Positions 3,258-20,427 of a stretch of 24,000 bases of DNA are shown here, piece after piece. The DNA is taken from positions 13,283 through 37,282 of the forward strand of contig JASEGJ010000010.1 of assembly GCA_030018135.1 (NCBI GenBank), in the 5' to 3' direction. Below the pieces are notes generated by a model. The model had not been told where the DNA came from. It saw nothing but the letters and a program-made list of their open reading frames with translations, and did not search any database. The position numbers and the translations under genes were made by a program. This DNA comes from Candidatus Hodarchaeaceae archaeon. GTDB lineage: Archaea > Hadarchaeota > Hadarchaeia > Hadarchaeales > Hadarchaeaceae. Position 1 is the stretch's first letter, and the number at the start of each line of letters is the position of its first letter.

Positions 3258-3265
3258 TATTTAAT
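3258..3265 (+). promoter_or_regulatory. TATA-like box for tRNA-Gln(UUG)
   Basis: TATTTAAT lies about 26-33 nt upstream of tRNA position 1 (3291). Confidence 0.45.
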
Positions 3266-3290: not shown

Positions 3291-3425
3291 AGCCCCGTGG
3301 GGTAGACCAGTAAAGCTGGGCCTAATGGTCAGGGTTCAAAGCCCCCATAAAAGCCTTCGGGCCTTTGGAGCCCGTGACCCCGGTTCGAAATCGGCCAGCC
3401 GACGAAGTTCCGGGCGGGGCTACCA
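3291..3425 (+). tRNA. tRNA-Gln (anticodon UUG) with three non-canonical introns and genomically encoded CCA
   Basis: Acceptor AGCCCCG/CGGGGCT (A1-U72), then A and CCA. Anticodon arm CGGGC-CTTTGGA-GCCCG at 3358-3374, anticodon TTG at 3365-3367. T stem CCCGG 3379-3383 / CCGGG 3410-3414. A 73-nt cloverleaf needs removal of about 3306-3325, 3332-3351 and 3390-3408. Confidence 0.8.
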
Positions 3426-3426
3426 T

Positions 3427-3621
3427 TTTTGTTAAGTAGTCTTGAGAAGTCGGATCGCCGAAGGACGTGGGGCAATTATCGCTTTTTAGCCGCTTTATTG
3501 CCTCCTTAAGGGCGTTTTCCGCGACCCGTGAAATGTTCAGGCCCGCATCCTTCGCTTCCTTCAAGATAGCAGGATCAAGGGTGATTGCGGTTATCTGGCG
3601 CTTTCGGTTTGGTCCCTTCAT
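3427..3621 (-). CDS. Candidate int(N): N-terminal ~65-aa fragment of a partitioned SSV-type integrase (alternatively a separate small ribbon-helix-helix-like protein)
   Basis: ORF 3322..3621 starts MKGPNRKRQITAITLDPAILKEAKDAGLNISRVAENALKEAIKRLK. It then reads through the tRNA 3' half as MVAPPGTSSAGRFRTGVTGSKG. That is the same phase as GRIRTGVAGSKG at the N terminus of the recombinase ORF at 5050..5940. Confidence 0.45.
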
Positions 3622-3915
3622 GTATATACACTCCTATGCACTCTCAGCCTCTTCAAGCACTTCTTTCAATCTCCTAGATATAATCCCCTTGATGTTTTCC
3701 ATACTCTGCTCCTCCGCGAGGCGGCAAAGTTGTTCTATTCGCTCAGGAGACAACTTGCGGCCCCGCCCTCGCCTGCTCGATGCTGCACACTATTAAAAAC
3801 CACTTTGCCAACCGAGACAGTGCATCGCCCATATTAAACCACGCGACATAAAAACTCGGCGCGATCTTTTTTTAGATTTTTAAGGAAATAAAAAAAGAGA
3901 GTTTGGGGCCCTAGG

Positions 3916-4392
3916 ATGGACTGGAGAGAATTTCTTCCTGTACATGAGTATAAAGCGTGGGTCGAAGACGCTCGAGATAAATTGGAGGAAGCGAAGAAGG
4001 ATCTAGATGACTTTCCTTTTAGTGCCTTTCAACGGGCCCATGAATCTGCCGAATTTTTATTAAAAGCCGTTTTGGTCCGTGCGGGCAAATTCGGTAGAAA
4101 AAATCGAATCCACCAATTACCACCGCTTCTGGATAAGATAGATCGCGAAAAATGCCTTCCACCCGGAGCGATTACTAAAGCACGAGAAATTGTGCCAGAA
4201 CTCGAGATTATAAATGTGGGCGGCCCGCGACCAGCCCCTACGCATGTCGACTCCATTACATACACAGCCGAGGTTGAATATCCGAAGGCAGGAATGTCTT
4301 CTACCGATCGAATATCAAAGGAAATGGCTGAGGAAAAAATATGTTTGTCACAACAACTGCTTGAATTATTACTTCCTTATTTGGACTGTTAA
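3916..4392 (+). CDS. HEPN-domain protein
   Basis: 158-aa ORF, helical. HEPN-like segment AHESAEFLLKAVL followed by an R-x4-H motif (GRKNRIHQL). AT-rich TATA-like sequence upstream (3870-3895). Confidence 0.7.
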   Translation: MDWREFLPVHEYKAWVEDARDKLEEAKKDLDDFPFSAFQRAHESAEFLLKAVLVRAGKFGRKNRIHQLPPLLDKIDREKCLPPGAITKAREIVPELEIINVGGPRPAPTHVDSITYTAEVEYPKAGMSSTDRISKEMAEEKICLSQQLLELLLPYLDC

Positions 4393-4402
4393 ATTGGCGC
4401 TG

Positions 4403-4687
4403 TTAACTTTTCTTTTTCCTCAACAATCTTCTTATTTGCTCTTCCTGTCTATTGTACCATTTATCAAAGAGCAGATACCCAAAGGGTAAATGAATGCCAA
4501 AGATTCCGAGTCCTCAGAAAATTAGGGGCCAGTGAAACCATATCTTTTCCGGCACAACTACGAGGTTGTAAACTGGAAAAATAACTGCGTTGAAAACCAA
4601 GTATATCACGAGATGGCAAAGGAAACCTTTTTTTGCTTCTCTCTTTTCCACAACTCTTCTCGCTTCTCTGTAATCCTTCACACTCAT
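4403..4687 (-). pseudogene. 2TM-domain small membrane protein interrupted by an in-frame TGA (4514-4516)
   Basis: My translation: MSVKDYREARRVVEKREAKKGFLCHLVIYLVFNAVIFPVYNLVVVPEKIWFHWPLIF-TGA-GLGIFGIHLPFGYLLFDKWYNRQEEQIRRLLRKKKS*. The TGA sits where this family usually has Trp (W-G-x-G-L). Below the ORF-track size cutoff. Confidence 0.5.
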
Positions 4688-4973
4688 TTTTTCACATCCA
4701 TCGGTGTGATATTGCTTCCTTAAAAGGTTGATGGAGGTATTAAGTTAACACCTATGTGAATCGCGAGGTTTTTTATTCATTTCGGTTTTCTCACTATCAC
4801 CTCATCGGTTTTGGGCATGATTGCATACACCTATCCGCGGTCTTTCGCCGCAATATAGTTTTTCGCTCGGGGCCCTCAATCAAACCCACGCGGTCAAAGC
4901 CGCAATTGAATTCCCGAGGTGCCCCTGCCCCTTTTGTTTCTCCCTTTGATGGTTGTGGGAGCATGATATTCAC

Positions 4974-5003
4974 CCGCCTCTCATCGAATAGTTTGAGAGG
5001 CGG
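4974..5003. repeat. Inverted repeat (9-bp stem, 12-nt loop) downstream of the integrase stop
   Basis: CCGCCTCTC (4974-4982) / GAGAGGCGG (4995-5003). Confidence 0.4.
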
Positions 5004-5049
5004 ATCCCTTAAAGCCGAGCGATTCATCATCCTATCAGCACCGTTAAAT

Positions 5050-5940
5050 TTACGAGAGAACTTTTAACCCCGCGCCATCGTATATCCTCTTTAACCGTTC
5101 GGGAGAGAAGTCCGTGTAATGCCTCGCCAGCACGCTCCTCGGAACCCGCCCACAGAAGGCATCGACGTATCTGTCTGCAACGCCCAACTCGCCCATCTCG
5201 GAGCAGAACCAGTCGCGCAAAATCTGGGGCGTGATCTTAACGCCCGATGCCTCGCTCGCCCGCTTGAACCACCTATCAATTCGACTACTCCGCCACGGAA
5301 AGAGCCTTTGGTCGGCGCTCACGTCCCGCCCGTTGAGGTATTCTCTCAGCGCTTGCTCCGCTTCTCGGTTGAAAAATGACGCCCATCTTTTCTTTGTTAT
5401 TGTGCTTGTTACGTTTGGCAGCACCATTCTCTTGTCAAGGTCGATGTCGCCTATCTTGAGCGATGCGACCTCATCTCGCCTAAGCCCCGATGTGGCGAGC
5501 ATCAGGAACACCGCACGTTCAAATGGCCTTTTGAGCGCTTCGTAAAATCGCTTCAACTCTTCCTTGGTCGGCACCCTTTTCGGCTTGAACTCTTGGCGCG
5601 GTAATTTGAACGTCGCCACTATTTCGCCTCTGCCCAAGAAGTCGCGGAAAAATCTTCTAAATGCTTTAAGAATGTTGGCGCGAGTCGAGGCGCTTGAATC
5701 CTTAAAGCCCGCGAGATAATCTCTAATAACATCGGTCGAAACTTCAGCGCCGTTTAACCATCTCAAGAATCGTTTAATTTCACGACAATGATCTTGGGCG
5801 GTGGCCTCGGACAGCGATAGGTCGATCGTGCAAAATTTCTTGAACTTCTCCAAAACATCAGGATCGAACGTTATGCCTTTGGAGCCCGCGACGCCGGTTC
5901 GAATCCGGCCGGGGCTACTAAATTTTAGGAAAAGTCGCAT
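5050..5940 (-). CDS. Tyrosine recombinase/integrase, C-terminal catalytic part (int(C) of an SSV-type partitioned integrase)
   Basis: 296-aa ORF. N-terminal residues SSPGRIRTGVAGSKG are the translated tRNA 3' half. SAM-like core-binding region present. Catalytic-type residues ATSGLRRDE (Arg), ILRDW (the xxR Arg) and C-terminal VLARHYTD (Tyr). The ATG at 5940 lies outside the repeat, so it is probably fortuitous. Confidence 0.85.
   Translation of the reverse strand: MRLFLKFSSPGRIRTGVAGSKGITFDPDVLEKFKKFCTIDLSLSEATAQDHCREIKRFLRWLNGAEVSTDVIRDYLAGFKDSSASTRANILKAFRRFFRDFLGRGEIVATFKLPRQEFKPKRVPTKEELKRFYEALKRPFERAVFLMLATSGLRRDEVASLKIGDIDLDKRMVLPNVTSTITKKRWASFFNREAEQALREYLNGRDVSADQRLFPWRSSRIDRWFKRASEASGVKITPQILRDWFCSEMGELGVADRYVDAFCGRVPRSVLARHYTDFSPERLKRIYDGAGLKVLS
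5875..5917 (+). other. Intron-less partial copy of the tRNA-Gln(UUG) 3' half (right att repeat)
   Basis: GCCTTTGGAGCCCGCGACGCCGGTTCGAATCCGGCCGGGGCTA: anticodon loop to discriminator, canonical T arm GCCGG-TTCGAAT-CCGGC, no 5' half, followed by CTA instead of CCA. Confidence 0.8.
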
Positions 5941-7522: not shown

Positions 7523-7653
7523 AGCCCCGTGGGGTAGACCAGTAAAGCTGGGCCCAATGGTCAATCCTGGCGGACGCTTCACAAGGCCGCAATCTGGATC
7601 CGTCGACCCCGGTTCGAAATCGCCCCGCGACGAAGTTCCGGGCGGGGCTACCA
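7523..7653 (+). tRNA. tRNA-Gln (anticodon CUG) with three non-canonical introns and encoded CCA
   Basis: Same acceptor and D region as the 3291 gene. Anticodon stem GCGGA (7571-7575 region) / TCCGT, anticodon CTG at 7594-7596. T stem CCCGG/CCGGG. A 73-nt cloverleaf needs removal of about 7538-7557, 7576-7592 and 7619-7636. Confidence 0.8.
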
Positions 7654-19206: not shown

Positions 19207-20427
19207 TCATTCAACCCCGATGTCGTATGACCTAGCTATTTCGTGAAATGCATCCGCGACCTTTTGAAGTTGATCTCGGTTCAGGCCGTAAGTGTTTAAT
19301 TTTATCAGCTTGGTCATCCCTGGATGTATGCCGGATATCTTCCTCTTTTTAAGTTCCTCGTGGAGGAAGAACCCGCGCCGTTCATGTTTTTTGGCGACCC
19401 TGTGGAAGGATGGGGTTTCGAAGCTGACGAGGGTGTGCCGCCTCGGCCGTTCGCCAAGTTGGTGGAAGTCCTTGATGCGTTCTAATTCTTTTACCAACCA
19501 CCTGATTTTCTCCACCTCCTCCTCCCAGCGCTTCACTCGCCCGACGACGTGCGGGAAGCTCGCCATTAGCGTCGCGATTGGCGCCCCGAACACTGGCGGA
19601 CATCCGAAGAGGAAGACCTCTTTTTTAGCGAAGGCACGGCCGCTCCAAGGACCTTTGATCGTCGAAGTTCTGAAAACCTTATCTGCGAACTCATAGGTTG
19701 TTGCTAAAATTCCTATTGGCCCAGATGCAGCCCAAGATTTATGCCCGCTACCCACCAGAAAATCTGCCTGCAACTTTTTGCCGTCTACAGGCATAACGCC
19801 CGCCGTGTACGCGGCATTCAAGATGAAAGGTACACCGTAACTCTTAGCTATTTTTCCAACCGCAGCTGCTTCAGCGAGGTTCCCGTAGCGGTAGTCGGCA
19901 TGCGTTAGAAGTACCGACGCCGGGAGCTCACCCGTTTCTCGCTTGACCTCATCGATTTTTACCGCATAGTCGTCTGCCTTTATCTTGAACTCGGGATAAC
20001 CGCTGTGCGGCACCTCGACTATCTTGAGGCCGTTGAGCTCAGCTGCGATGTAAGTGGTGTAATGAGCAAGCGAGTCGATCACTACCATGTCACCAGGCTC
20101 AGTTATTGCCTTGAAAATCGCATTTTTTGCGCCCCTTGCGCCTGGTGTGAAGTTGACCTCGTCCATGTTCAAAAACTTGGCCACATCGTCGGCGAAGTCG
20201 AATATGGGCGGTTTTTTCACCAGGTCAACGCGACCCTCTAAACAATAATCGCAGACGCTGTAGCCGTCGGCGAATGAGAGCAGGGTCTCGCGGGTTTCCG
20301 GGGGCAGTATTCCTCCCCTTTGAATCGGGTGTAAATTGATCCAACTCTCGTCGACCTCTCGGCGGAGGTTTTTGTATATGTCGAGATTTATTTCTCTCAC
20401 CCTATCGTCCCCAAGAAACTGTCCCAC
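19207..20427 (-). CDS. pscS: O-phosphoseryl-tRNA(Cys):Cys-tRNA synthase (SepCysS)
   Basis: 406-aa ORF. INLHPIQRGG, GYSVCDYC, PLP-lysine motif VGSGHKSWAASGPIG, MASFPHV..RVKRWEEEV, closely matching SepCysS as I recall it from Archaeoglobus and methanogens. Start is GTG 20427, or possibly GTG 20400. Confidence 0.9.
   Translation of the reverse strand: MGQFLGDDRVREINLDIYKNLRREVDESWINLHPIQRGGILPPETRETLLSFADGYSVCDYCLEGRVDLVKKPPIFDFADDVAKFLNMDEVNFTPGARGAKNAIFKAITEPGDMVVIDSLAHYTTYIAAELNGLKIVEVPHSGYPEFKIKADDYAVKIDEVKRETGELPASVLLTHADYRYGNLAEAAAVGKIAKSYGVPFILNAAYTAGVMPVDGKKLQADFLVGSGHKSWAASGPIGILATTYEFADKVFRTSTIKGPWSGRAFAKKEVFLFGCPPVFGAPIATLMASFPHVVGRVKRWEEEVEKIRWLVKELERIKDFHQLGERPRRHTLVSFETPSFHRVAKKHERRGFFLHEELKKRKISGIHPGMTKLIKLNTYGLNRDQLQKVADAFHEIARSYDIGVE

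Follow-up and report, generated by a model that had tools for sequence, protein, structure and literature searches.

A tRNA-Gln(UUG) gene interrupted by three bulge–helix–bulge introns beside an integrated element in a Hadarchaeota genome

Introduction

The locus at positions 3291–3425 on the plus strand of the window (the whole stretch of DNA that was analysed, 24 000 nucleotides) raises the question of whether a tRNA gene that goes unrecognised by standard tRNA finders can be a genuine gene, and of how a mature tRNA would be obtained from it. Neither ARAGORN, run with and without its intron mode, nor Rfam at the gathering threshold reports a tRNA in the uncut window. A sequence-only reading had claimed that the locus is a tRNA-Gln(UUG) gene which is interrupted three times, with no intron at position 37/38. 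This claim is borne out here by the cloverleaf of the spliced product, by the geometry of the bulge–helix–bulge (BHB) motifs at the junctions, by orthologs with and without each insert and by covariation, and the locus is a genuine tRNA-Gln(UUG) gene with three introns. We further consider it highly likely that this is the sole tRNA-Gln(UUG) gene of its genome and that its precursor, with three BHB introns, would be spliced by EndA and RtcB, intron 3 having probably been installed together with an integrated element.

Recognition and anatomy of the gene

Removal of three segments (3306–3325, 3331–3350 and 3390–3408) from the 135-nt gene leaves 76 nt, which ARAGORN identifies as tRNA-Gln(ttg) with all stems perfect. 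A BHB-motif search, one of the checks that had been suggested for this locus, shows all of the inserts to be BHB-compatible. The first and third segments are as originally read from the sequence; the second had been placed at 3332–3351, and BHB geometry favours 3331–3350 instead, with an identical product. The acceptor stem is AGCCCCG/CGGGGCU (with A1–U72), the anticodon arm is CGGGC-CUUUGGA-GCCCG and the T stem is CCCGG/CCGGG, with A73 and an encoded CCA at the 3′ end. In the ARAGORN solution the D loop of the spliced product has 9 nt (AGUGGUCAA) and the variable loop 4 nt, and the T loop reads UUCGAAU. The parts of the gene are as follows.

3258–3265, plus strand: TATA-like box TATTTAAT read from the sequence, centred about 29 nt upstream of tRNA position 1; putative promoter
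3291–3305, plus strand: exon 1, tRNA positions 1–15 (acceptor 5′ strand, U8, G9, D-stem 5′ strand GGGU, A14, G15)
3306–3325, plus strand: intron 1, 20 nt, at position 15/16; HBh′-type BHB
3326–3330, plus strand: exon 2, the 5-nt micro-exon UGGUC (U16, G18, G19, U20, C20a)
3331–3350, plus strand: intron 2, 20 nt, at position 20a/20b in the D loop; HBh′-type BHB
3351–3389, plus strand: exon 3, positions 20b–59 (D-stem 3′ strand, anticodon arm with UUG, 4-nt variable loop, T-stem 5′ strand, T loop UUCGAA)
3390–3408, plus strand: intron 3, 19 nt, at position 59/60 in the T loop; strict hBHBh′
3409–3425, plus strand: exon 4 (U60, T-stem 3′ strand, acceptor 3′ strand, A73, encoded CCA)

A T5 tract (3426–3430) lies directly 3′ of the encoded CCA, and an A/T box similar to the TATA-like box is found about 27 nt upstream of the tRNA-Gln(CUG) paralog described below.

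A conventional tRNA-Gln(UUG) elsewhere in the genome, part of the counter-case named in the sequence-only reading, was looked for with ARAGORN and the Rfam tRNA model, and neither lists another tRNA-Gln(UUG) in the 93%-complete assembly. An anticodon arm with CUUUGGA in a tRNA context likewise occurs a single time in the genome, at 3291–3425. The gene is probably essential to its host. Two further loci gave 'Gln(ttg)' solutions; their acceptor stems begin with G1–C72, and they are actually genes for tRNA-Asp(GUC) and tRNA-Glu(UUC).

The window holds a second interrupted glutamine tRNA gene.

7523–7653, plus strand: tRNA-Gln(CUG) paralog with three introns, at 7538–7557 (position 15/16), 7576–7592 (32/33) and 7619–7636 (59/60)

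The first 41 nt of the CUG gene differ from those of the UUG gene by one base, a similarity that suggests gene conversion between the two paralogs.

The whole genome was scanned with an unbiased SPLITS-like procedure, in which acceptor seeds were passed through a T-arm filter, as many as four BHB segments were removed and ARAGORN was run on the result. Both Gln genes were recovered with their hand-derived introns, the top solution for the UUG locus consisting of precisely the same three introns. At least ten further loci need at least two BHB removals, a count that is a rough census because the solutions are ambiguous and uncurated. Only 28 tRNAs are reported with confidence for this genome by the Rfam tRNA model, and 16 of these exceed 90 nt. 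A 180-nt locus on another contig of the same genome (G000:C10:19634–19813, plus strand, where G000 denotes this genome) gives a tRNA-Phe(GAA) cloverleaf only after the removal of four BHB candidates, again as an ambiguous solution. Both tRNA-Gln genes and about a dozen others here escape standard tRNA finders, and metagenome-assembled genomes (MAGs) of the Hadarchaeota appear short of essential tRNAs.

Geometry of the intron junctions

The BHB template comprises a 4-bp helix H, two 3-nt bulges that are each cut after the second base, an inner helix h′ and an outer helix h. All three junction pairs of the gene have four of four pairs in H, two 3-nt bulges and a 5-bp inner helix. For intron 1, H is formed by GGGU (3300–3303), which is the D-stem 5′ strand, and the intronic GCCU (3320–3323); the bulges are AGA (3304–3306) and AAU (3324–3326), the inner hairpin is CCAG(U)/(G)CUGG and there is no outer helix. 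The motif of intron 2, which also lacks an outer helix, has AUGG (3325–3328) and CCAU (3345–3348) as H, UCA and AAA as bulges and GGG(UU)/(AG)CCC as inner hairpin, the 5 bp of which include wobble and A–U pairs. For intron 3 the 5-bp T stem serves as the outer helix, H is UUCG (3384–3387) with CGAA (3403–3406), the bulges are AAA and GUU and the inner hairpin is UCGG-CCAG-CCGA.

The two D-loop motifs are intertwined. The 3′ bulge of motif 1 (3324–3326) overlaps helix H of motif 2 (3325–3328), and the exon between the introns is 5 nt long. The two motifs cannot therefore form together, and the two D-loop introns would have to be removed stepwise, with refolding in between. Helix H of intron 2 pairs at all four positions both before and after the removal of intron 1: its first base is the last nucleotide of intron 1, and once this intron is lost G15 takes its place and still pairs.

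Minimum free energy (MFE) folding with ViennaRNA gives a different picture of part of the precursor. The BHB conformers lie 13–16 kcal/mol above the MFE, in which intron 2 is paired with the anticodon arm. The MFE fold reproduces the BHB motif of intron 1; those of introns 2 and 3 are not reproduced by MFE folding. Within positions 3326–3378, the MFE structure pairs exon 2 and intron 2, with CAAAG in the loop of the latter, with the anticodon loop and stem (CUUUG...). The long helix between intron 2 and the anticodon arm is not conserved among the intron sequences of relatives and may be due to chance or be specific to this lineage. Since the competing helix is not conserved, we take the disagreement with the MFE as a caveat and not as a refutation.

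Conservation among relatives

The gene was used as a BLAST query against 40 related genomes, and extraction of all tRNA-Gln genes then gave 27 UUG orthologs. These carry between zero and four inserts each, solely at positions 15/16, 20a/20b, 53/54 and 59/60. Eight orthologs have no insert (73-nt genes), 11 have one, three have two, three have three (this genome, G010 and G024) and two have four. The four-insert genes, which use all four sites, are those of G006 (L007:1501–1656) and G014 (L005:1501–1655). The intron at 15/16 is present in 17 of the 27 orthologs and that at 20a/20b in eight, and at the 59/60 site relatives exist in which both flanks directly abut. The intron-less ortholog of G021 differs from the predicted spliced product at two of 73 nt; it scores 60.6 bits with the Rfam tRNA model (RF00005), whereas the interrupted genes obtain no score. 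G021 belongs to the same genus (g7) as the four-intron G006 and G014, so that both extremes of the range from zero to four introns occur within one genus, which points to very fast intron turnover.

A strict BHB template with no boundary shift (H 4/4 and h′ of at least 2 bp) is matched by 31 of the 34 inserts, compared with 151 of 31 946 control junction pairs (0.47%), a fit far beyond chance. For two of the three exceptions, in G006 and G014, H reaches 4/4 only once intron 1 has gone, when an A–C opposition becomes a G–C pair; this supports ordered splicing. The helices also covary. In the intron at 15/16 the H2 pair is G–C in nine genes and U–A in eight, and the h′1 pair is C–G in nine and U–A in eight. 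For the intron at 59/60, all three scored h′ pairs switch between Watson–Crick types.

Host and splicing enzymes

The sequence-only reading had looked to a Thermoproteales-like archaeon with a splicing endonuclease of relaxed specificity. This does not hold. The nearest relatives of the EndA of this genome (71–80% identity) all come from Hadesarchaea/Hadarchaeota MAGs, which identifies the host as a member of the Hadarchaeota and not as Thermoproteales-like. The suggested check of the EndA type found a single gene for an alpha-type protein of 179 amino acids (PF01974, 122 bits), not an (alpha-beta)2 enzyme. Neither Pfam at E ≤ 10 nor phmmer --max against all six-frame ORFs revealed a second EndA subunit in this genome. 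Among 41 related genomes, 38 have a strong EndA match in ORFs of 174–239 amino acids, and two matches are found in G017 only.

The protein aligns nearly gap-free with the alpha4 EndA of M. jannaschii. It has neither the 9-residue Crenarchaea-specific loop (CSL) of the A. pernix alpha subunit nor the 5-residue insertion of the ARMAN-2 enzyme between the catalytic Tyr and His; the spacing of these two residues equals that in the M. jannaschii EndA, with no insertion relative to it near the catalytic His, where Kaneta et al. (2018) define an 'L3' loop in Hadesarchaea. The enzyme is predicted to be an alpha4 assembly able to cut HBh′ motifs. A tryptophanyl-tRNA synthetase-like gene (trpS) follows endA (L001:1474–2013, minus strand) directly on the same strand, and the ends of the two genes overlap (the pair spans L001:362–2013).

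The ligase RtcB is present (521 bits). Its match falls into two parts about 1.4 kb apart within one stop-free frame of 874 amino acids (G000:C11:68229–70859, minus strand, locus L089), and the gene may carry an intein.

The company of the gene had been described as an unusual combination, with SepCysS and a corrinoid methyltransferase system nearby. A SepSecS/SepCysS-family gene is indeed present at 19207–20427; no corrinoid methyltransferase was found in the ORFs scanned. A Hadarchaeota host with a single alpha-type EndA explains the combination with SepCysS.

Proposed splicing pathway and its alternatives

The sequence anatomy, the BHB geometry, the presence/absence pattern among relatives and the presence of both enzymes are observed, and from these we infer excision itself and the order of splicing. 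Transcription from the gene's own TATA-type promoter would give a precursor of about 135 nt. EndA would cut within the 3-nt bulges and the RtcB ligase would join the exons, resulting in a 73-nt tRNA plus CCA. Intron 3 would be presented to the enzyme as a strict hBHBh′ substrate stacked on the T stem and introns 1 and 2 as relaxed HBh′ substrates, the D-loop introns being excised one after the other as the RNA refolds. There is a tension in this scheme. In published work the loop-less EndA class is tied to strict BHB substrates, yet two of the three introns are of the relaxed HBh′ type.

An entirely different explanation is that the gene is a decaying pseudogene in which the inserts stay unspliced, UUG decoding being supplied elsewhere, for example by a gene in the unassembled part of the genome. 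The genome is about 93% complete, an integrative element has disturbed the locus and tRNA finders fail to recognise the gene, all of which would suit such decay. It is difficult to reconcile, however, with a spliced product in which every stem is perfect, with three inserts that all have exact BHB geometry and with an architecture that is kept, with covariation, across genera. The TATA-like box, the encoded CCA and the T-tract are also intact, and the 93%-complete assembly yields no substitute tRNA-Gln(UUG). We consider decay very improbable.

Only marginally more credible, and still very unlikely, is a scheme in which the alpha4-like EndA cuts the T-loop intron and leaves the D-loop inserts, which would need another factor, a diverged helper subunit or the use of the tRNA body as a ruler as in eukaryotes. 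The absence of both the CSL and the ARMAN-2 insertion from EndA is in its favour, as are the missing outer helices of introns 1 and 2 and the reported inefficiency of loop-less enzymes in cleaving a D-loop HBh′ intron (PMC5829648). Against this, one EndA-like ORF is found in this genome and in the relatives examined (38) save G017, and these include assemblies of three to four contigs. The D-loop inserts moreover keep the exact spacing of 4-bp helix and 3-nt bulges that only EndA is known to measure, and Kaneta et al. link this enzyme class in Hadesarchaea to disrupted tRNAs (PMC5829648). Splicing of all three introns by EndA and RtcB is the reading that we retain. The locus would offer a clean test substrate for how a single-subunit EndA without a recognised specificity loop handles two overlapping D-loop introns with a 5-nt exon between them.

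An integrated element and the possible source of intron 3

The distance between the UUG and CUG genes is 4.1 kb in this genome, compared with 36–990 nt in most relatives and about 1.5 kb in genus g4. An integrated element lies between the two genes.

3424–5918: integrated element of about 2.5 kb with a split SSV-type integrase, a HEPN gene and an orphan tRNA-Gln 3′ half
3427–3621, minus strand: int(N), 65 codons, ribbon-helix-helix-like; N-terminal part of the SSV-type integrase, reading into the tRNA 3′ half
3916–4392: HEPN gene within the element
5050–5874, minus strand: int(C), SAM-like and catalytic domains of a tyrosine integrase (PF00589, PF16795, PF13495)
5875–5918, plus strand: orphan intron-less tRNA-Gln(UUG) 3′ half, attR, with T stem GCCGG/CCGGC

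The ORF that contains int(C) extends from 5050 to 5940 on the minus strand, and its first codons overlap the orphan tRNA 3′ half. The split int(N)/int(C) arrangement is the signature of an SSV-type split integrase, for which recombination at the att site is predicted. In five relatives the homolog of int(N) directly adjoins a tRNA gene encoded on the other strand, toward the 3′ end of which it reads (Ser, Leu, Ser, Gly and Ser), and in G043 an int(C) fragment and int(N) are 5.7 kb apart in the same orientation. A second copy of the element was not found; neither its int(C)–att junction nor the intron-3 allele had an exact match among viral and metagenome contigs.

The two copies of the tRNA 3′ half differ. 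Both contain the 14-nt core GCCUUUGGAGCCCG and the same final 9 nt; one base of the variable loop differs, a T-stem pair is swapped and the 19-nt intron is present in one copy only. Their identity begins 2 nt before the anticodon loop. The anticodon loop is the usual crossover region for such integrases. The orphan half abuts host DNA that is syntenic with G003 and G013, and it is identical at 43 of 43 positions to the tRNA 3′ end in G003, the gene of which has no intron at 59/60. Intron 3 sits inside the att repeat of the element. When int(N), att and int(C) are joined, the frame is open for 361 amino acids only with the 63-nt intron-containing att; with the 44-nt intron-less att the joined integrase frame stops at residue 81.

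The behaviour of the frame suggests that intron 3 was probably delivered by the element. The att of the element, inside its integrase gene, would be a copy of an intron-containing tRNA-Gln 3′ half, and an integration crossover at the anticodon loop would have exchanged the intron-less 3′ half of the host for the intron-bearing one. The original half would have been displaced to 5875–5918, leaving a functional gene that is now a chimera. The UUG intron 3 is identical at 18 of 19 positions between this genome and G002, while the CUG introns at 59/60 of the same two genomes differ strongly, which is consistent with delivery by the element. We rate horizontal delivery of the T-loop intron and the present T arm by the SSV-type element at about an even chance, the main argument being that of the reading frame, with its 1-in-3 prior of arising by chance.

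Alternatively, intron 3 could be host sequence inherited vertically, with the orphan half being the element's own att and the crossover located at the 3′ end, within the shared CGGGGCUAC. In its favour, the CUG gene of this genome contains a homologous intron at 59/60 and an identical T stem, G002 carries the same intron allele beside host-syntenic DNA, and at a chance of 1 in 3 the frame argument may be coincidental. We regard vertical inheritance as quite possible, if somewhat short of an even bet. It would leave unaccounted for the frame that breaks at residue 81 with the intron-less att and is open over 361 amino acids with the other; the orphan half directly abuts the syntenic host flank and matches the G003 gene, which lacks a 59/60 intron, at all 43 positions. 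The start of att identity 2 nt before the anticodon loop and the close match of the UUG intron to that of G002, at a site where the CUG introns are strongly divergent, also speak against it.

In G002 the contig begins precisely where the att core within the tRNA-Gln(UUG) gene ends (L071, G002:C28:1–54). Assembly may have broken off there because of a repeated att, which would hint at an element in that genome too. The 5′ part of the G002 gene was sought on its other contigs, and the candidate match proved to be a different tRNA.

If delivery of intron 3 by the element is correct, integrase-mediated replacement of the 3′ half would give BHB introns a way of passing from one archaeal lineage to another, besides the intron transposition already proposed. 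An att-borne intron would provide a testable mechanism of horizontal tRNA intron gain, and it would complicate the idea that introns shield tRNA genes from integrases.

Comparison with known systems

Multi-intron tRNA genes are already known and common in the Hadarchaeota lineage, and the gene described here is a further case. Kaneta et al. (2018; NAR, PMC5829648), in a summary that covers one Hadesarchaea genome (YNP_N21), linked an alpha4-type EndA in Hadesarchaea to heavy disruption of tRNA genes. The present genome belongs to the same phylum and shares with that set a single alpha-type EndA of about 180 amino acids and many tRNA genes with multiple or non-canonical introns. The specific gene, its four intron sites, the polymorphism from zero to four introns and the link to an integrating element are not described in that summary.

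The multi-intron tRNA genes of the Thermoproteales, as presented in PMC4033280, are similar: a gene holds at most three short BHB/HBh′ introns, placed in its D and T loops, and these are gained and lost quickly among closely related organisms. The host here is instead a member of the Hadarchaeota, and its EndA is not (alpha-beta)2 and has no Crenarchaea-specific loop. Three introns per gene is the published maximum according to the same source (Sugahara et al., 2008, via PMC4033280), and the orthologs of G006 and G014, with four inserts each, exceed it. A D-loop HBh′ intron is also known from a euryarchaeal-type host with an EndA that has no specific loop; in the present case there are two overlapping D-loop introns plus one in the T loop, and a single type of EndA subunit.

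The element resembles the SSV1-type partition at a tRNA att site, in which a tyrosine integrase is split into int(N) and int(C) within a tRNA 3′ half and the 3′ half is duplicated. In Caldiarchaeum, a recombinase-bearing insertion of 1.8 kb is reported between a tRNA gene and a tRNA fragment (Sugahara et al., 2012, as cited in PMC4033280). We found no description in the literature of an att site carrying a tRNA intron. Unlike in the SSV1-type and Caldiarchaeum cases, one of the two att copies described here carries a BHB intron that the other lacks, and the integrase frame stays open only with the copy that has it. The noteworthy features of this locus are the overlapping D-loop introns, the polymorphism from zero to four introns among orthologs and the probable delivery of one intron by an element.
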